A stretch of 63,819 nt of DNA, filler included, from an uncultured archaeon (GCA_964442255.1; 9 parts of 9 records of this genome joined end to end with filler, not necessarily neighbours in it); one strand, 5' to 3'. Counted from the whole stretch's first letter, positions 27,616 to 60,803 are shown. Program-made: numbers and translations. Notes: generated by a model from the sequence alone, not told the origin.

Positions 27616-27656
27616 CGAGATCTACACTCTTTCCCTACACGACGCTCTTCCGATCT
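27616..27656 (+). other. Illumina TruSeq adapter contamination
   Basis: CGAGATCTACACTCTTTCCCTACACGACGCTCTTCCGATCT. Confidence 0.98.
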
Positions 27657-28961
27657 GGAAATTTGGTGGTGACAAACCGCTGCGATTTGAGCTGCTGGTA
27701 CTGCTTTTTTTTCGCAAAAGAAGGCGACCCAATTTACGAGCCCTCCCTCGCGCAGATAAGGAAAATGCTGCGAAATTTAAGGAAAGAAAAGCCGATTGCA
27801 AGCAACGCAATCCAGCTGACGGGAGGGGAGCCGACTTTGCGCGAGGATTTAACGGAAATAATACGGGTTGCGAAAGAAGAAGGGTTTGACCACGTGCAAT
27901 TAAATACGGACGGAATAAACCTGGCATTCAAAGAAGGGCTGGTGAAAAAAGTCAGGAAAGCAGGGGTCAACACTTTGTACCTGAGCTTTGACGGAACAAC
28001 CCCAAAAACAAACCCAAAAAACCATTGGGAGGTGCCGTTTGTTTTTGAAAACTGCAGGAAAGCAAATATGGGCGCTGTCCTGGTGCCGACAGTGATAAAA
28101 GGAATCAATGACCACGATTTAGGCAACATACTGAACTTCGGGTTAAACCACCTGGACATTGTCAGGGCGGTCAACTTTCAGCCGGTTTCATTGGTGGGAA
28201 GGATGCCGAGAAAGGAAAGGGAAAAACGCAGGATAACAATTCCCGGAACACTGAAAAAAATAGAGGAACAGACCCGCGGGCTGATTGCAATGGAAGACTT
28301 TTACGTCATCCCCTGCATAACTCCGTTCACGGATTTTGTGGAGGCCTTCACCGGAAAACCGAAATACGATTTGTCCACGCACTTCGCGTGCGGGGCGGCA
28401 ACATACATTTACATGGACGGAAAAACCCCCACGCCAATCACAAGGTTCATTGACTTTGAGGGATTGAGGGAATTCCTTTCAGAAAAAACGCGTGAGCTAA
28501 AGGAAGGAAAGCACAAGGCATGGGTTGGAAGCAAAATGCTGTTCAAAATAGGAAGTTTTTTAGACAAAGAAAAGCAGCCAAAGGGCCTGAATTTGGCGAA
28601 CATTTTATTCAACACAATAGTTAAGCACAACTACAGGGCAATAGGGGAACTGCACCACAAGACGATGTTCGCTGGACTGATGCACTTCCAGGACAAATAC
28701 AATTATGATGTGGAACGCGTGGAAAGATGCGACATACACTATGTGATGCCTGACGGAAGAATAATTCCATTTTGTGCGTTCAACGTAATTCCGGAAATTT
28801 ACAGGGACAAGGTGCAGGCACAGTACAGCATTCCGCAGGAAGAGTGGAGCAAAAAAACAGGGAAAACCCTTTTGGAGGGAAAGTACAGGAGAAAAACAAA
28901 AGAACTTGAGTCCAGCCCAGTTTACGGGAAAATTTATGATACGGTGAATTACTTTGAATGA
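27657..28961 (+). CDS. radical SAM enzyme, tetraether synthase (Tes/GDGT-MAS, MJ0619 family)-like; 5'-truncated
   Basis: TNRCDLSCWYCFF, IYEPS, QLTGGEPT, NFQPVSLVGR, HFACG, MHFQD, RCDIHY, IPFCAFN. Confidence 0.8.
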   Translation, partial: GNLVVTNRCDLSCWYCFFFAKEGDPIYEPSLAQIRKMLRNLRKEKPIASNAIQLTGGEPTLREDLTEIIRVAKEEGFDHVQLNTDGINLAFKEGLVKKVRKAGVNTLYLSFDGTTPKTNPKNHWEVPFVFENCRKANMGAVLVPTVIKGINDHDLGNILNFGLNHLDIVRAVNFQPVSLVGRMPRKEREKRRITIPGTLKKIEEQTRGLIAMEDFYVIPCITPFTDFVEAFTGKPKYDLSTHFACGAATYIYMDGKTPTPITRFIDFEGLREFLSEKTRELKEGKHKAWVGSKMLFKIGSFLDKEKQPKGLNLANILFNTIVKHNYRAIGELHHKTMFAGLMHFQDKYNYDVERVERCDIHYVMPDGRIIPFCAFNVIPEIYRDKVQAQYSIPQEEWSKKTGKTLLEGKYRRKTKELESSPVYGKIYDTVNYFE

Positions 28962-29220
28962 GCCCTTCAGGGAAATACAGAAAAAAGAGTACTCCGTCAG
29001 GGGATTGAAGTCAGAGAACGATGCAGCATTCCTCCAGTACAGGCTGTCGCTTCTTGATTCGGTCATTCGGGCGCATGTCGGCTTTGGGGAAGGAAAAGCC
29101 TTTGTGCTTTTTTCAGGCGAAGAAAAAGAAATCAAAAAAATCCTCGGGGAAAATGCAAAAGAGTTAAAAGGAGTTAAAACACAGTATTCTGATCTGGTGG
29201 AAAAAAGTTTCAGCAAATGA
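28954..29220 (+). CDS. hypothetical protein
   Basis: Operon-like spacing. Confidence 0.5.
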   Translation: MNEPFREIQKKEYSVRGLKSENDAAFLQYRLSLLDSVIRAHVGFGEGKAFVLFSGEEKEIKKILGENAKELKGVKTQYSDLVEKSFSK

Positions 29221-29232
29221 GGTGAAAAAAAA

Positions 29233-29673
29233 GTGGAGGAATCAATCCAGTTTGTGGCGAACTGCAGGGGATGGGTTTCAGTCAGGAAATTAAAGGTGAC
29301 GGAAGCTACTGACCCCCGCACAGTGCTGGAGTTTCTGGCGTCCCTTAACACGGGAATTGACCGCAAGGTGGAGGAGTATTTGGGAAAAATCGTGGATTTG
29401 GCTCCGCTGGATTCCGCATTAACTGATGTTTTGGGCGACTCCGGAAAAACTCCCGGGGAGGCGATAAAAGCGGTGAACAGTTTGCAGGTGAACAAAGCAG
29501 TGAATGAATTGGCTGAAGGGCTGGAGAAGCTGCAGAAAGGGGAAAAAAAAGAGGTCTCCGAGTTTTTGAAGGTTTACGCAATGCGGAAAGCGCTGAAGGA
29601 AAAGAAGATTAGGGTGGATTACTCGGAAATAGCGGTTCCGGGAATGAAAAAAGTGAAGAAAACAAAGGTTTAA
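29233..29673 (+). CDS. archaeal conserved protein (DUF2666-like)
   Basis: IQFVANCRGWVSVRKL...EFLASL; GAGGTGA SD. Confidence 0.6.
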   Translation: MEESIQFVANCRGWVSVRKLKVTEATDPRTVLEFLASLNTGIDRKVEEYLGKIVDLAPLDSALTDVLGDSGKTPGEAIKAVNSLQVNKAVNELAEGLEKLQKGEKKEVSEFLKVYAMRKALKEKKIRVDYSEIAVPGMKKVKKTKV

Positions 29674-29698
29674 ATTTTCCTTAAACTTATTTTTTTGG

Positions 29699-29968
29699 AT
29701 GGCAAAAGAAATATTCAAGGAAAGGGTTGGCCCCGGAAACCTGCGCGTCGGGGTAAAGGCGGGAAAAAAAATTCCCCCAAGACGGGCAATTGAATTCAAC
29801 TTGTACAGCAAATTCCACGGGCACGAGTACGTGATAAGGGGCAAAGAACTGTTTGAATTAAAGGGCGGAAGGCTTTCCATTGTGGAGGACGCGGCAGACG
29901 CGAGAATTGCGTTAACTAACGCTAAATGGAGTCAAAAGTCTTCCCTGGACAAAACCAAAATGAAGTGA
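29699..29968 (+). CDS. hypothetical protein
   Basis: ATG ORF in a co-oriented run. Confidence 0.5.
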   Translation: MAKEIFKERVGPGNLRVGVKAGKKIPPRRAIEFNLYSKFHGHEYVIRGKELFELKGGRLSIVEDAADARIALTNAKWSQKSSLDKTKMK

Positions 29969-29975
29969 AAATTGA

Positions 29976-30836
29976 ATGGCTTCGGAAATTGAACTGGTTC
30001 AATTTTTTCAGGGCTTTTCCAGCCCGGCGCTGGATTATTTGATGATTGCGTTAACCCAATTGGGAAACCCTTTCTTCTGGCTTCTGCTTACGGCCGTGGT
30101 TTACTGGAGCGGAAGGGACAGGGAGGCGTTGGGTTTTGCCAATTTGGTTTTGTTTTCTTCCATGGCTGTTGGAGTTTTAAAGCATTCGTTTGGGAAACTC
30201 CGGCCTCCTCTGGTTTCGGATTCGGTGAGGGCGGTTATTCCAATTGAATTCGGCCCTTTGGCTTTTCCTTCAGGGCATGCAACGCTTGCGGGGGCTTTTT
30301 TCGGGTATTTTTTGAAATACAAGAAACTTTTCTGGAGCCTTGGTTTGGGTGCAGGGGTTTTGGTTGTTGCAGTGAGCAGGGTTTATTTGGGAATGCATTT
30401 TGTTTCCGATGTTTTGGCGGGGGCTGTTTTGGGGTTGGTTATTGGAATGCTGAACATTAAATTGAGTGAACGGATCGCGAAAGCAAAACTGAAGCTGAGC
30501 TTGTGGAAAGAGGAACTGCTGGTTTTCGGGCTGATTGCCGCGAGCATTTTGCTTTTGATTTACTACAGGGAAAGCGCTTTGCCTGCCGCCTTCATCGGGT
30601 TTTACGCGGGTTTTTTCACCTTAAAGGAAGTAGAGTACCCGCATAAGTGCGAGAGAGGAAAAAGCCTTTGGGTTAAGGAAGGGCTTGGCTTGGCGGGAAT
30701 TGGGGCACTGCTTTTGGCTTACTTTTTTTCGGGAAGCTTTTTGCTTGAATTCGCCTTAATGGGCTTGGCCGGATTATGGATTTCCTTCATTTGGCCCCTT
30801 ATTTTTGACCATTCCCTTAAAGGCAACTGCTTTTAA
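29976..30836 (+). CDS. PAP2 family membrane phosphatase
   Basis: KHSFGKLRP, FPSGH, SRVYLGMHFVSD. Confidence 0.9.
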   Translation: MASEIELVQFFQGFSSPALDYLMIALTQLGNPFFWLLLTAVVYWSGRDREALGFANLVLFSSMAVGVLKHSFGKLRPPLVSDSVRAVIPIEFGPLAFPSGHATLAGAFFGYFLKYKKLFWSLGLGAGVLVVAVSRVYLGMHFVSDVLAGAVLGLVIGMLNIKLSERIAKAKLKLSLWKEELLVFGLIAASILLLIYYRESALPAAFIGFYAGFFTLKEVEYPHKCERGKSLWVKEGLGLAGIGALLLAYFFSGSFLLEFALMGLAGLWISFIWPLIFDHSLKGNCF

Positions 30837-30860
30837 ACCTTAAACGCACCAAATATTAAG

Positions 30861-30949
30861 GCTGTCATTTTCCGAGCGAAAGCGAGGAAATAACTACTAC
30901 AAAACGCAGTGAGGTAGTAGGGCACGCATATAAACTGGGCGTGACAGTT
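30861..30949 (+). repeat. REP-like multi-hairpin element upstream of the tRNA-Tyr leader
   Basis: CTGTCA/TGACAG closing stem; GAGCGAAAGCGAG and AACGCAGTGA loops. Confidence 0.55.
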
Positions 30950-31207
30950 TCCCGCCTTAGCATAGCAAACTTTTTCAAAAAAAGTTTGAACAAAAAAAGC
31001 TTTTTAAGAAACCTTGTAAATGCTTTGCGTCGTTAAAAAACCTTTCGGTTTTTTGACGCGTCGGAAACCTGCAGGTTTCCAACGTTACGAGGCCCCGCAA
31101 ACCTTAAAGTTTGCAAGGAAGCTTTAGCAAAAAAGCAAAAACCGGCTAACGCCGAAAACTTTTAGAAAAAGTTTGATCAAAATATGTGCTAAGGCAATGT
31201 ACTGCAA
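30950..31207 (+). other. tRNA-Tyr 5' leader: copy of the tRNA 5' end, hairpin element, antisense copy
   Basis: TCCCGCCTTAGCATAG at 30950-30965 equals 31208-31223; TGTGCTAAGGC at 31185-31195; the core is homologous to the tRNA-Pro intron. Confidence 0.8.
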
Positions 31208-31208
31208 T

Positions 31209-31428
31209 CCCGCCTTAGCATAGTAGCCAATGCGTCCGGCTGTAGTTGTTTCAACCGGTTTTTTTTTGAACCGGTGTGCTTTGCTTCAGGGCAAAGCGGG
31301 CGCATAAACCCGAAAGCGGCGGTGAGCGAGGCGAAAGCCGAGCCAGTGCCATACGCCAGTATGGCACGTTCCACTGCCGGGAACAGCCGGCAACCGGAAG
31401 ATCCCCGGTGCAAATCCGGGAGGCGGGA
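31209..31428 (+). tRNA. tRNA-Tyr(GTA) with a 147-nt intron at 37/38 (31246-31392)
   Basis: Acceptor CCCGCCT/AGGCGGG-A, D stem GCAT/ATGC, anticodon stem TCCGG/CCGGA, loop CTGTAG|A, T arm CCCGG-TGCAAAT-CCGGG. Confidence 0.85.
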
Positions 31429-31480
31429 TTTAGGCTTTTGAACGATAGTTTTATAATAACACTTTGTGTTACGCTATGTT

Positions 31481-31777
31481 ATGGAGTATGTTAGTTTCAA
31501 ATTAGATAAGCCTGTTTTGAAGCAGATAGAGAAGGGGATTAAGGAGTTCCATTACAGCACCAAATCAGACTTTTTAAGAGACGCTGTAAGGACAAAACTG
31601 CAGCAGCTTGAAGAGGACAGGGCCAAAAAGAAGGCCTGGGACGCGCTGTTCGCAGCAAGAGGCGTATTGAAGGGACAGGGAAAGGCAAAAACAGACGAAG
31701 AATTTAGGAAAATTACTGAGAAAGCAGCAGAGGAATACATTGAAAAATTGGAAAAGAAATTTTCTGCTCAAAAGTGA
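31481..31777 (+). CDS. ribbon-helix-helix (CopG-like) putative antitoxin
   Basis: VSFKLDK...YSTKSDFLRDAVR. Confidence 0.8.
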   Translation: MEYVSFKLDKPVLKQIEKGIKEFHYSTKSDFLRDAVRTKLQQLEEDRAKKKAWDALFAARGVLKGQGKAKTDEEFRKITEKAAEEYIEKLEKKFSAQK

Positions 31778-32187
31778 ATGTCTTCAGGCATTGCAATTTT
31801 TACAATATCTGCCAAAGCATCAAAGTGCCTGTCTCTTGTAACCATTACTGCTTTGTTGTCTCTCGCTAACACAGCATGCAGAACATCCTTAAAATGCGTT
31901 TCTTTGACAGAAGAAGAAATTTTTCGTGCCTGAGAAATTTGTTCATCAGAGAGAAAAACCTTAACAAGAATATCCTCAAATGGAGAAAAAAGCCCAGCAA
32001 TTCTTTCATCAGAATAATCAGATTTTAGCTCTTCCACAACCAAATCAGAAAACAAAACCTTACAATTGTTCTTTTGACAATTTTTCAAGAATTGGAAAGC
32101 AAAATCCCCCAAAGGCCTGATACTGTCTCTTCTGTCTTCAAAATAGTCCCGCCAGATTGCAGTATCCAGGTAAAACTTTTGCACCAT
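31768..32187 (-). CDS. PIN-domain (VapC-like) toxin
   Basis: YLDTAIW, VVEEL, DVLHAVLA, VTRDRHF. Confidence 0.87.
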   Translation of the reverse strand: MVQKFYLDTAIWRDYFEDRRDSIRPLGDFAFQFLKNCQKNNCKVLFSDLVVEELKSDYSDERIAGLFSPFEDILVKVFLSDEQISQARKISSSVKETHFKDVLHAVLARDNKAVMVTRDRHFDALADIVKIAMPEDIHF

Positions 32188-32366
32188 AGTAACAACTATT
32201 GCTTAACATTATTTAAAACAAATTAACCAAAACAAGGTAAGCAATGGCTGAAATTGTCGGGAGTTGCACTCACAGATGGAGGTTGGGAGGCGGGAATTTT
32301 TTTTTCAATAAAAAGGAATGCCGGATGGCAGCATATTTATAAATTGTTTACATTAAGATATATTGT

Positions 32367-32903
32367 ATGACAAAGTTGCTTGTTATTAGCGACAGCATTT
32401 CTTTGATTATTGGAACTAAAGCAGGCTTGCTTGATGCAATATGTGAAGAATTCCAAGTTGAAATTCCTGAAAAGGTTTTTGAAGAAACGGTTTTAGCTGG
32501 AAAAGAATTGCAAAAAATTGATGCACTGAAGATTGAGGATGCAATTAAAGAAAATAGGATAGCGGTTAAAAAAACAAAGCCGTTGAAAGAAGGCAAAACA
32601 GCCAATTGGCTCAGCCAACTTAATTTGGATACGGGGAAAATGGAAGCAATAAAGCTCTACATTCAGACAAATGCAAAATTAATGTTAATTGATGACCGGC
32701 AAGCAATAAACGCAGCAAAGTTGCTTGAAATAAACTGGGCAACAATTCCAGACATTATCGTTGAATTTGCGATAAGGAAAAAAATCTCAAGAGAAATTGC
32801 ATTAGAAGCATTAAAAATCGCTCAAAGAGAAGGAAGATACAAAATAGAGTTTGTTCTCAAAGCATTTAATAAAATTGAAAAAATAAAAGGAGGGAAAAAA
32901 TGA
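32367..32903 (+). CDS. PIN-like (DUF3368-type) toxin; lacks the usual GE motif (reads GK)
   Basis: VISDSISLI, IPEKVFEE, LDTGKMEAI, LIDDRQA. Confidence 0.75.
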   Translation: MTKLLVISDSISLIIGTKAGLLDAICEEFQVEIPEKVFEETVLAGKELQKIDALKIEDAIKENRIAVKKTKPLKEGKTANWLSQLNLDTGKMEAIKLYIQTNAKLMLIDDRQAINAAKLLEINWATIPDIIVEFAIRKKISREIALEALKIAQREGRYKIEFVLKAFNKIEKIKGGKK

Positions 32904-33214
32904 AAACAAAACTCGTTTCCGCAAGGTTTGCAAAGAAGGATACTGCATTAATAGAAGAGGTTGCCAGAGAAGAAAAAACAGACAAAACCACGGCGTTAAA
33001 AAGAATATTTGTACTCGGCGCAAAACAATACAAACTAGATAAAGCGATAAAAGATTACCAAGAAGGAAAAATAAGCATAGGGAAAGCAGCAGAAAACGCC
33101 GAAATAAGCTTGTGGGAGATAATGGATGAACTAAAAGAAAGAAACATAGTGAACCCATTAGGCGAAGAAGAATTCAAGGAAGGATTGAAAAACCTTCAAA
33201 AGGTCTGGAAATGA
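32900..33214 (+). CDS. UPF0175 family antitoxin
   Basis: AIKDYQEGKISIGKAAENAEISLWE. Confidence 0.87.
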   Translation: MKTKLVSARFAKKDTALIEEVAREEKTDKTTALKRIFVLGAKQYKLDKAIKDYQEGKISIGKAAENAEISLWEIMDELKERNIVNPLGEEEFKEGLKNLQKVWK

Positions 33215-33503
33215 AAAAAACCACAAACCACTAACCATTCACTACCAACCGCAAATCCAAGCAGCTCCGGGAGGCGGGATGCCCCCGCAAGAAGCGGTTT
33301 CAGGGGCTCCTTGAACTCCGCGGAAAAGGAAAAAACACCACTCACTCCATAAAACAACAGCCCTGAAAAAAAACATGTTTTAGGCACTACAAACCCTGTC
33401 CGGATAGCCTTTAAAATGCCCGGCAAATGTCCGGAAAGGAGGCACGGGCAATTTTTGCAGATGGCGCAAATTCGGTAAACCCCCAAATTCACCCACAAAT
33501 ATT

Positions 33504-33758
33504 TCAACTTTTTCTTTTTGTTAACAGCTTAGGCAAATCATCAGCGGTTAAACCACAATCCCTTAGAATGCCTTTAAGCGTTCCAACTGGCAGCATTTTC
33601 TTGGTGTGGCAGGGAATGGTAGTGTACCTCAGCTCTCCCTTATAAACGCCTTTCAGCTGAATGTGTGAACCCTTTTGCCTTACAGGAATTATGCCGATTT
33701 TAGACAAGACTTTAACTAATTCTTTTGCCTTGATAGCAGGCAATTTCCTTTCCACCAT
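33504..33758 (-). CDS. hicA: HicA family toxin
   Basis: LPAIKAKELVKVL...RQKGSH...IPCH...GTLKGILRD. Confidence 0.9.
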   Translation of the reverse strand: MVERKLPAIKAKELVKVLSKIGIIPVRQKGSHIQLKGVYKGELRYTTIPCHTKKMLPVGTLKGILRDCGLTADDLPKLLTKRKS

Positions 33759-33767
33759 AAAAATAAG

Positions 33768-34028
33768 CTACAAGGCCTCAACTTGGATTTGACTTTTACT
33801 TTCTGCGGAATCAGTGGGAAGATCAACTACCAAAGTTAATATGCCCGAAACTGCCTGTTTAATCTTTTGTTCCCCCTCCACATTCAGCAAATAAGCTTCC
33901 TGAAAGTTTCTTAAAGCTTCTTTAAATGTTTTTCCGTAAGTGTTAATATGGTAGTCGTCATTCCTTATCAGGACATGTTTTCCTTCTTTCCAGACCTTAA
34001 TCTTTACTATCTGCGGGACCATAGACAT
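33768..34028 (-). CDS. HicB-like antitoxin
   Basis: TYGKTFKEALRNFQEA; adjacent to hicA. Confidence 0.75.
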   Translation of the reverse strand: MSMVPQIVKIKVWKEGKHVLIRNDDYHINTYGKTFKEALRNFQEAYLLNVEGEQKIKQAVSGILTLVVDLPTDSAESKSQIQVEAL

Positions 34029-34367
34029 TCACCCAAACACTAGCCTGCTTTTCCCATCTACTGAAAATTTAATGGAATTTCCAACCTGATACTTGTCTTT
34101 TACAGCCTTCCATTCATCTTCCGAAAAATAAATAATCGCCTTAAATTCCTCAGGCTCCACAGGCGGCACTCCCGGCACAATAGGAACCGACAAATTTTTT
34201 GGGCTTTTTGATAATTTAACCGGATGTTTAAAAGTCAAGTCAACACGAACAGCTGAACTGCCGTCCGGGCGAGTCGCCCTAATGACATTCTTAACGGCTA
34301 CAAGGTCAGCCGAACCCACTTTTTCACCTAAGAATTGTATGCCCAAAACAGTTTTAAAATCATGCAT
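34029..34367 (-). CDS. hypothetical protein (OB-fold/arcadin-1-like appearance)
   Basis: Co-oriented with hicBA; IYFSEDEW...YQVG. Confidence 0.5.
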   Translation of the reverse strand: MHDFKTVLGIQFLGEKVGSADLVAVKNVIRATRPDGSSAVRVDLTFKHPVKLSKSPKNLSVPIVPGVPPVEPEEFKAIIYFSEDEWKAVKDKYQVGNSIKFSVDGKSRLVFG

Positions 34368-34420
34368 TATTTACAAAAAGCCCCCAATGCCCCTGAAGAA
34401 GAGAAAAAATATCGCTCACT

Positions 34421-34475
34421 CCTTGAACTACGGTGGGCTGAAGCCCACCGAGTCTTTACTTGAACTGTAGCAAGG
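34421..34475. mobile_element. IS200/IS605-end-like hairpin element, at contig end
   Basis: Identical to 20188-20242. Confidence 0.6.
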
Positions 34476-57004: not shown

Positions 57005-57077
57005 TAGCCCCGAGGAGATTCGAACTCCTGTCAAGAGGTCCAGAACCTCTTATGCTTGGCCGCTACACTACGGGGCT
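57005..57077 (-). tRNA. tRNA-Gln(CTG), no intron
   Basis: AGCCCCG/CGGGGCT-A acceptor, AGAGG-TTCTGGA-CCTCT anticodon arm, GTTCGAATC. Confidence 0.95.
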
Positions 57078-57137
57078 GTGCTCCGCAGCCTGTTTTTTGG
57101 TGAACCTTTTTTTAAAAGGTTCCCAGGCTACGGGGCT
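57078..57137 (-). other. tRNA-Gln 5' leader: copy of the tRNA 5' end, hairpin, antisense copy
   Basis: AGCCCCGTAG duplicated (57128-57137); GCCCCGTAGCCTG pairs with CAGGCTGCGGAGC. Confidence 0.75.
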
Positions 57138-60541: not shown

Positions 60542-60803
60542 TGGGGCCCCGGGGATTTGAACCCCGGTCTACACCACGTTGGAACGCTTTTTTCTTTTCC
60601 CACGGCTTTTCGCCGAAGGCGAGTTTTTTGATAAAACTTTTCCTTGCAAACCCAAAGGTTTGCGAGGCTCCGCAACGTTGGAAACCTGCGGGTTTCCGAC
60701 GCGTCGAAAAACCGAAGGTTTTTCAACGAAGCTTTGCTTTTACAAGGTTTCCAAAAAGTTTTTCCCCAAGGTGCAATGCTAGTCCAGGCTACACCAAGGC
60801 CCC
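60542..60803 (-). tRNA. tRNA-Pro(GGG) with a 187-nt BHB intron (60577-60763)
   Basis: GGGGCCT/GGGCCCC-A acceptor, GCACC/GGTGT anticodon stem, loop TTGGGG|T, BHB helix TTGG/CCAA with 3-nt bulges. Confidence 0.9.

Follow-up and report, generated by a model that had tools for sequence, protein, structure and literature searches.

The 5′ end of a tRNA-Tyr gene in an uncultured archaeon is present twice, and we hold with moderate confidence that the 258-bp interval defined by the two copies is a compound small-repeat insertion that duplicated its target, in which the spare tRNA end and an antisense segment neutralize each other. A repeated tRNA end is usually taken as the trace of a large element that once integrated. 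In the present case, gene-less inserts of 45 to 250 bp leave this signature again and again, each with an antisense of the duplicated piece. If this reading holds, it shows that small repeats are able to colonize tRNA genes without killing them, and that a spare end and its antisense can lock each other in permanently. It would also illustrate concretely how reduced archaeal genomes acquire structured leaders and trailers of tRNAs and, perhaps, introns and split genes. In practical terms, partial tRNA copies near tRNA genes are no proof of prophage integration.

The tRNA-Tyr gene and its locus

The window, i.e., the whole 63,819-nt stretch of DNA that was analyzed, is a chain of short contigs from one archaeal assembly (G000; 1.28 Mb, 51 contigs, 93.8% complete), in which an RNase P RNA is present (97.9 bits). 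The tRNA-Tyr locus lies on contig C38 (6860 bp; window 27616-34475). The functional gene occupies 31209..31428 on the plus strand and comprises exon 1 (31209-31245), a 147-nt intron at position 37/38 (31246-31392), and exon 2 (31393-31428). Its identity, as originally predicted, was borne out by the GTA (GUA) anticodon, the C1-G72 pair, A73, and the clean standard cloverleaf that forms once 31246-31392 is removed. A tRNA-Tyr without an intron, on a contig from sequencing run X3 that belongs to another organism, skips exactly these bases and confirms the limits of the intron. ARAGORN missed the gene in default mode, and its intron mode found the gene but mis-registered it as Asp; standard tRNA finders miss or mislabel such genes. 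Default finders report only 20 tRNA genes in this genome, and in ARAGORN intron mode many of its tRNA genes have very long introns of ~80 to 220 nt, although some of these calls are doubtful.

The upstream neighbor of tRNA-Tyr is a PAP2-family membrane protein gene (29976..30836, plus strand; Pfam PF01569, E value of 9.8e-20). A similar PAP2-type gene end precedes tRNA-Tyr in most of the same-family loci fetched, as judged by eye from the sequences, Pfam having been run on the G000 genome only. On the 3′ side, 31466-34367 holds a cluster of small toxin-antitoxin-like genes (RHH/CopG, a weak PIN match, UPF0175, and HicA) and looks like an accessory region.

The tRNA-Tyr intron has features of its own. 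There is no clean bulge-helix-bulge (BHB) motif at its 3′ site, where ACAG pairs with CTGT of the anticodon loop and is followed by CCGGCAA, i.e., by 7 nt where a bulge of 3 nt is expected; in the surplus CCGG, the sequence of the anticodon stem's 3′ strand recurs. A GC-rich cassette ending in GCCGGCAA makes up the final ~50 nt of the intron (31340-31392). It is also found directly 5′ of tRNA-Ile(TAT), and its reverse complement, TTTGCCGGC.., lies directly 3′ of many tRNAs; the sites include contig C12 upstream of 38335, contig C24 downstream of 5005, and several other tRNA flanks. Leader and trailer cassettes of this kind could pair with each other and so lengthen the acceptor stem.

The duplicated 5′ end and its antisense

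The 16-nt direct repeat TCCCGCCTTAGCATAG corresponds to tRNA-Tyr positions -1 to 15. Its two copies, 30950-30965 (plus strand; here called the spare copy) and 31208-31223, are 100% identical at a spacing of 258 and are the only occurrences of this 16-mer in the 1.28-Mb assembly; an exact 16-mer match within 300 nt has a chance expectation of ~7e-8. Between them, 13 nt before the downstream copy, lies the antisense segment TGTGCTAAGGC (31185..31195, plus strand), an 11-mer that occurs once in the assembly. It is complementary to tRNA positions 4 to 14 (GCCTTAGCATA) of either copy, with 10 Watson-Crick pairs and 1 G·U pair. An equally good duplex arose in 3/2000 dinucleotide shuffles of the interval, and the cognate tRNA-Tyr end gave the best duplex among the 80 tRNA ends tested. 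Both the upstream duplication and an antisense able to engage either copy had been part of the original prediction, and both stand.

A 12-nt spacer (31196..31207, plus strand) separates the antisense from the downstream copy and forms the new proximal leader. Its last 3 nt pair with the trailer, extending the acceptor stem, and the inverted repeat AATCCCGCCT and AGGCGGGATT is complementary at 10/10 positions.

The interval is built of small repeat modules

The interval is composed of modules with counterparts elsewhere in the genome. Module M1 (30966..30998, plus strand) is an AT-rich palindrome made of inverted repeats, CAAACTTTTT-C-AAAAAAAGTTTG, with an A-rich tail; a module of this type also opens the intron of a tRNA-Ser gene. 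Module M2 (31155..31184, plus strand) consists of AAAACTTTTAGAAAAAGTTT and the tail GATCAAAA-TA, and in the fold this right-hand palindrome arm is joined to the left arm of M1, the two forming an inverted repeat. Both modules conform to AAACTTTTT..AAAAAGTTT followed by a tail like that of M2. A loose regular expression for this family gave 96 matches genome-wide, often arrayed at contig ends and beside tRNA genes. By its spacing, M2 is a candidate TATA-like promoter, with a TATA-like stretch ~40 nt before +1 that falls within the range seen at other tRNAs of G000. Modules were not enriched as oriented promoters before ORF starts (5/69 versus 3/69 within 20-59 nt, for 69 oriented modules).

Nested in the interval is a copy of an ~150-nt palindrome-rich repeat, repeat A (30994..31145, plus strand), whose core (~31012-31118) forms three hairpins. 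Repeat A has inverted ends and 10 other copies in the genome (11 in total) of 81 to 99% identity, the closest of which are identical to the tRNA-Tyr copy over ~80 to 95 nt of the core; compensatory changes among the copies preserve all three hairpins. The copies are located in a tRNA-Pro intron, in the spacer between 16S rRNA and tRNA-Ala, beside two tRNAs, and in intergenic DNA. No clear target duplication was seen by eye at four intergenic copies outside tRNA loci. A small GC hairpin is also present in the interval.

The proposed homology of the intervening DNA to the tRNA-Pro intron is real, and it is partial, extending over ~140 of the 242 intervening bases. Over 142 nt, bases 30995-31134 match the tRNA-Pro intron at 83.8%; the matching part is 60624-60763 on the minus strand of the window (contig C47:567-428). 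The tRNA-Pro(GGG) gene itself occupies 60542..60803 on the minus strand and has a 187-nt intron in which this copy of repeat A lies.

No Rfam family matched the interval or repeat A at the gathering score, the one match being at chance level (E value of 0.25). A virus or plasmid origin of repeat A was rejected on the basis of 0 matches in viral contigs; among 185,579 species genomes, the only match was to a metagenome-assembled genome of Candidatus Iainarchaeum, which has a partial copy in intergenic DNA.

The 16S-tRNA-Ala region (contig C17:1481-3863) shows two further peculiarities. The spacer contains, besides its repeat A copy, apparent "empty" versions of the arms of that copy, and the 16S rRNA match spans 1675 nt against a model length of 1478, so that an insertion or intron is possible.

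The upstream copy carries the ancestral flank

The upstream copy is preceded by an ancestral-type leader cassette (30886..30949, plus strand), which contains the hairpin ACTACTAC...GTAGTAG and ends in ...ACAGTT directly before the spare copy. The 65 nt 5′ of this copy align with the native tRNA-Tyr leaders of two related genera (genomes G003 and G002), which end ...GCAGTT|TCCCGCC, whereas the flank of the downstream copy does not align with these leaders. From this comparison of flanks, the upstream copy is the original 5′ end, displaced from its gene. A second copy of the first 11 nt was found in none of the tRNA-Tyr loci fetched from 13 related genomes. Together with the upstream position of the ancestral flank, this indicates that the tRNA-Tyr duplication is derived and specific to its lineage.

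The layout recurs at other tRNA ends and in relatives

The order of parts seen at tRNA-Tyr, namely, an outer spare copy of the tRNA end, an AT-rich palindromic module, an antisense of 7 to 11 nt, a short spacer, and the functional end, was found at 8/41 tRNA candidates in G000, comprising three 5′ ends and five 3′ ends. Exact duplicates of at least 15 nt of the gene's own terminus within 800 nt were present at 6/41 candidates; for both tRNA-Gln genes the duplicate is 10 nt long. The 3′-end cases are Ala-CGC, Ser-TGA, Leu-TAA, Leu-GAG, and a further type II tRNA on contig C12. Here the tRNA is followed by a spacer, an antisense of 7 to 10 nt, the module, a second copy running from the T-loop to the discriminator, and the trailer. 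The 5′-end cases (Tyr and two Gln) are the mirror image, with a copy that starts at +1 or -1, the module, the antisense, a spacer of 2 to 12 nt, and the tRNA. In all 8 cases the module tail faces the tRNA and the spare copy is outermost. Duplications are 10 to 33 nt long and mostly end exactly at the mature tRNA terminus. When each antisense was compared with ~80 tRNA ends, the cognate end was best in 4/8 cases and near-best in 2, and both tRNA-Gln genes of G000 scored weakly; since tRNA 3′ ends are alike, this non-cognate control is only partly clean. For the 3′ cases, derivation of the antisense from the 5′ strand of the T-stem was rejected, since the antisense continues into T-loop and acceptor sequence and forms Watson-Crick pairs at sites of G·U pairing in the tRNA.

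A second example in the window is tRNA-Gln(CTG) (57005..57137, minus strand), in which the gene (57005-57077) is accompanied by the antisense CTGCGGAGC (57080-57088), the module AACCTTTT..AAAAGGTT (57103-57121), and a 10-nt spare copy of positions 1 to 10 (57128-57137). Opposite C4, its antisense carries an A, as would be expected if the ancestral base had been T4; in genome G001, the tRNA-Gln and its copy alike have T4. A pattern search detected the tRNA-Gln leader layout in 6/196 genomes of the order, belonging to three families, while the reversed-pattern control gave 0. The seven tRNA-Gln units share one module subtype, have inserts of ~45 nt, and vary in copy and antisense. The original prediction had named absence of the pattern from other tRNAs and from relatives as a result that would speak against it; the pattern is present in both.

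Copies follow their tRNA largely, though not fully. At tRNA-Gln position 12, the tRNA, copy, and antisense of genome G170 all have the alternative base relative to genome G008, and pairing is kept; at position 4 of the same G170 locus, the copy has T and the tRNA has C. The antisense departures in tRNA-Tyr and at tRNA-Gln position 8 are G·U pairs. The 3′ copies of tRNA-Leu(GAG) in G000 and G001 each equal the acceptor of their own genome. Gene conversion, repeated formation, or selection could each produce this agreement. Joint change between families at position 12, taken with the genome-specific Leu(GAG) copies, points to maintenance or gene conversion, more than would be expected of a passive scar.

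G001 has end duplications at 2/33 tRNAs, and its tRNA-Leu(GAG) has a simple form that lacks an antisense and consists of the tRNA, a module, 9 nt, and a 17-nt copy.

Predicted folding and a possible role in tRNA maturation

The minimum-energy fold of 30945-31215 is a nested rod with the spare copy/antisense helix at its base (-90.3 kcal/mol; z score of -6.9; 0/200 shuffles as stable). With the spliced tRNA-Tyr attached, the cloverleaf formed beside this rod in silico, and it was the winning structure with or without the spare copy, which in such folds acts as a decoy. A fold in which the decoy serves as the acceptor strand was 4.5 kcal/mol worse (-121.8 versus -126.3 kcal/mol), and no trigger or sensor for a switch at tRNA-Tyr was visible. 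Two readings had been offered at the outset. The first, in which an insertion rebuilt the 5′ end and the spare copy is masked, agrees with the ancestral flank, the repeat families, and the spare/antisense fold. The second, a conformational switch controlling maturation, was not supported at tRNA-Tyr by the fold energies, and no trigger was evident. Use of "leader" for the interval is putative, there being several T5-T6 runs between decoy and antisense.

When the decoy was removed in silico from the tRNA-Gln of G008, G001, G088, and G170, the antisense captured the real 5′ end and 0/7 acceptor pairs formed; with the decoy, 7/7 acceptor pairs formed in 4/5 loci tested. For G088, there is little to choose between the two folds in energy, and the one of minimum energy has the decoy as the acceptor strand. 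According to these folding models, the spare copy and the antisense of the tRNA-Gln loci cancel each other.

These properties raise the question of a maintained functional RNA element, i.e., a hairpin of the leader or trailer, under selection and co-evolving with its tRNA, that either guides folding and processing of the precursor or acts as a maturation checkpoint choosing the 5′ end. We regard this as a tentative alternative of rather low probability. The spread of the tRNA-Gln version over three families, set against an empty control, would be expected of such an element, as would the pairing preserved at position 12, antisense departures that take the form of G·U and hence pair in RNA and not in DNA, an antisense that is harmful in silico once the decoy is absent, and the balanced folds of G088. 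The tRNA-Tyr layout is recent here, given its absence from the 13 relatives, and its cloverleaf is stable with or without the decoy; the T5-T6 runs may also make it doubtful that decoy and antisense share one transcript. Co-variation is incomplete, as seen in the T4 copy of G170 and the A opposite C4 in G000. Moreover, the form of tRNA-Leu(GAG) in G001 is free of antisense, and mutual dependence can arise without benefit. A broader version of the proposal, to which we likewise give limited credence, is that "mutual-masking" hairpins are a class of elements maintained at the tRNA genes of these tiny archaea, with tRNA-Tyr as a newly born member. Each would pair a spare copy of the 5′ or 3′ end of its tRNA with an antisense, co-evolve with that tRNA, and decide in the precursor whether the real or the spare end enters the acceptor stem. 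If true, such hairpins would be a built-in tRNA maturation checkpoint or an "addictive" pair that cannot be lost once formed.

A proposed compound insertion that duplicated its target

The reading that we favor, a compound small-repeat insertion with target duplication, implies a history of three steps. A module, drawn from the small palindromic repeats that crowd the discarded parts of tRNA genes in G000, would have entered the outer 15 bp of the tRNA-Tyr gene and duplicated positions -1 to 15. The antisense would then have arisen beside the module tail, by template switching or by stepwise selection, and repeat A and a second module would have nested in the loop. Such a first step, module insertion with duplication, is modeled on the antisense-free tRNA-Leu(GAG) of G001, which fits it. 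The outcome would be an intact gene downstream and, upstream, the original 5′ end left as a spare still joined to the ancestral leader. In the RNA, the spare copy and the antisense would close the long nested hairpin while the tRNA folds alone, so that the spare is kept from the acceptor and D stems and the antisense is kept from the real 5′ end. Transcription of tRNA-Tyr would probably start from the new, putative TATA-like site inside the insertion.

Two features bear on the mechanism of insertion. Duplications of 10 to 33 nt that mostly end exactly at the mature tRNA end are not accounted for by ordinary staggered-cut transposition and count against the insertion reading. A search of the assembly for PF00589 found no linked transposase or dedicated integrase, the sole match being one gene on contig C3. 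As for the antisense, it lies past an 8- to 9-nt unpaired tail of the module, and simple fold-back extension of the palindrome therefore does not account for it; fold-back priming was marked down for this reason. Template switching during replication, guided by microhomology, is a possible origin.

Comparison with integrative elements and other mobile repeats

Direct repeats of a tRNA terminus around inserted DNA, together with a rebuilt gene, define the borders of archaeal integrative elements, and this is the arrangement found at tRNA-Tyr. As at SSV-type and pNOB8-type borders, one copy of the repeated terminus lies in the rebuilt gene, the other is an outside fragment, and foreign DNA lies between, and the 5′ terminus can serve as a site. 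Among these closest described cases is a tRNA-Thr 5′ fragment upstream of its gene in Caldiarchaeum subterraneum (PMC3293823). The interval could thus be a decayed attL/attR pair left by an integrase-driven element at the tRNA-Tyr 5′ end, nearly all of whose DNA has since been lost. The toxin-antitoxin-like accessory genes 3′ of tRNA-Tyr would suit such an element, as would the ORF that lies directly 3′ of tRNA-Tyr in both G003 and G007 and has a SAM-like domain of the integrase N-terminal type.

We nevertheless consider this origin unlikely. The insert is 242 bp long, far from the kilobase size of such elements, has no coding capacity, and is made of chromosomal palindromic repeat modules; the tRNA-Gln inserts, at ~45 nt, are smaller still. 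The integrase ORFs of the relatives are on the 3′ side, not the 5′ side. Pfam showed no integrase on contig C38, and the assembly has the one tyrosine recombinase gene on another contig. The module family is present at unrelated tRNA ends, each with its own antisense, for which one attP would be insufficient. Known integrative borders also differ in that the repeats here are 10 to 33 nt long and end at the mature tRNA terminus, inserts range from 45 to 250 bp and contain no recombinase, and each comes with an antisense of the repeated piece, a feature that is not known to be part of att-site descriptions.

The modules of a small-repeat insertion have counterparts among prokaryotic MITEs and REP-like repeats, which are short, noncoding, multicopy, palindromic, often nested or arrayed, and intergenic and which form RNA hairpins. 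The modules found here are likewise short, noncoding, and multicopy and have the inverted repeats by which MITEs are recognized. The target duplications of MITEs are short and constant in length, and no antisense specific to the target accompanies them; the duplications described here are long, vary in length, and are associated with tRNA termini. Casposons are large elements with terminal inverted repeats and genes for Cas1 and a polymerase. The layout shares with them unusually long target duplications at tRNA gene ends and tandem arrays but involves no large element, Cas1, polymerase, or casposon terminal inverted repeats. At tRNA 3′ ends, casposon insertions reportedly produce 14- to 15-bp target duplications (PMC5137440).

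In three-segment RNA switches such as attenuators, pairings are mutually exclusive, and here too the antisense (segment 2) pairs with either the decoy (segment 1) or the real tRNA end (segment 3). The layout differs from attenuators in having no evident sensor or trigger, and at tRNA-Tyr one state is favored by both the folding energy and the order of synthesis. A full-text literature search, covering journals outside subscription, found no published account in which a copy of a tRNA end pairs with an antisense; the combination of spare tRNA end, module, and antisense seems to be undescribed.

Assembly and splicing as alternative explanations

The contig is short, the closest other copies of repeat A are identical over ~80 to 95 nt of the core, and an assembly chimera might have joined two loci through this multicopy core, so that the spare copy and the tRNA are not neighbors. 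In run X1, independent unitigs match 30479-31038 and 31078-31354 exactly; among the unitigs listed, from contigs of four runs, none bridges 31038-31078, so that the original assembly is the source of the join across the core. Nevertheless, the spare copy on the left-hand unitig is matched by the antisense on the right-hand one at a level rarely reached by shuffling, the left flank is the syntenic tRNA-Tyr locus with its PAP2 gene and ancestral leader, and the 16-mer is found at these two places only. Even in a chimera, a tRNA-Tyr 5′ fragment fused to a module would remain. We therefore view misassembly as very improbable. Among the four runs, the locus is present in DNA runs X1 and X2, which belong to one study; X6 gave no match, and X3 contains only the tRNA-Tyr of the other organism. 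No RNA run is listed as containing the locus. No empty-site allele was seen among the listed contigs of X1 and X2.

Least likely of all, and scarcely credible, is a noncanonical intron at position 15/16, or a split-tRNA-like arrangement, in which removal of the interval by the archaeal splicing endonuclease would turn the upstream copy into the true 5′ end. In its favor, the module after the upstream copy is the same as that opening the tRNA-Ser intron, repeat A is common to the interval and the tRNA-Pro intron, the antisense resembles an exon-intron pairing, and the decoy-as-acceptor fold is worse by a small energy difference. Against it, an hBHBh′ motif was absent from all 18 registers that the repeat allows, where nothing exceeded a lone 4-bp H with no helix next to it. 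For 5′ sites in 30940-30975 and 3′ sites in 31150-31225, no motif combined H=4 with values of 2 or more for h and h′, and the scan was equally negative for the 7 tRNA-Gln units. The downstream gene is complete and contiguous, with its own 37/38 intron, so that removal of the interval is not needed for a mature tRNA. The scan covered ungapped strict and semi-strict forms and recovered the canonical motif of the tRNA-Ser intron, as checked by eye. With both forms negative, a BHB intron was rejected; a split or permuted tRNA gene was likewise dismissed, the gene being contiguous and free of BHB motifs at these boundaries. Intron transposition occurs in Thermoproteales. The introns and the leaders of split and permuted archaeal tRNAs (PMC3218864) resemble the present case in that one sequence family occupies introns, leaders, and trailers and complementary segments lie beside tRNA pieces, and they differ in relying on BHB motifs and splicing. 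Direct repeats at intron borders are the subject of PMC11782384.

Tandem and nested variants

Several loci show further repetition of tRNA ends. On the 3′ side of tRNA-Leu(GAG) in G000 (contig C17:22720-23360, minus strand), an ~190-nt unit composed of the 3′-end copy with 13 nt of trailer, a spacer, the antisense, and the module occurs in at least 3 tandem repeats, with assembly gaps inside the array. The tRNA-Gln locus of G170 (L058) has, in addition to its 5′ spare copy with antisense, an imperfect copy of the 3′ end ~110 nt downstream. In the tRNA-Gln locus of G002 (L033), the last 12 nt of the tRNA are present three times in tandem, and a 36-nt spacer contains a different hairpin (TTGAATCCGCAGATTCAA) and a 5-nt antisense. 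At the tRNA-Tyr locus of G003 (L017), ~45 nt of the leader are repeated at the 3′ end of the gene's own intron, and the same sequence thus precedes both exons.
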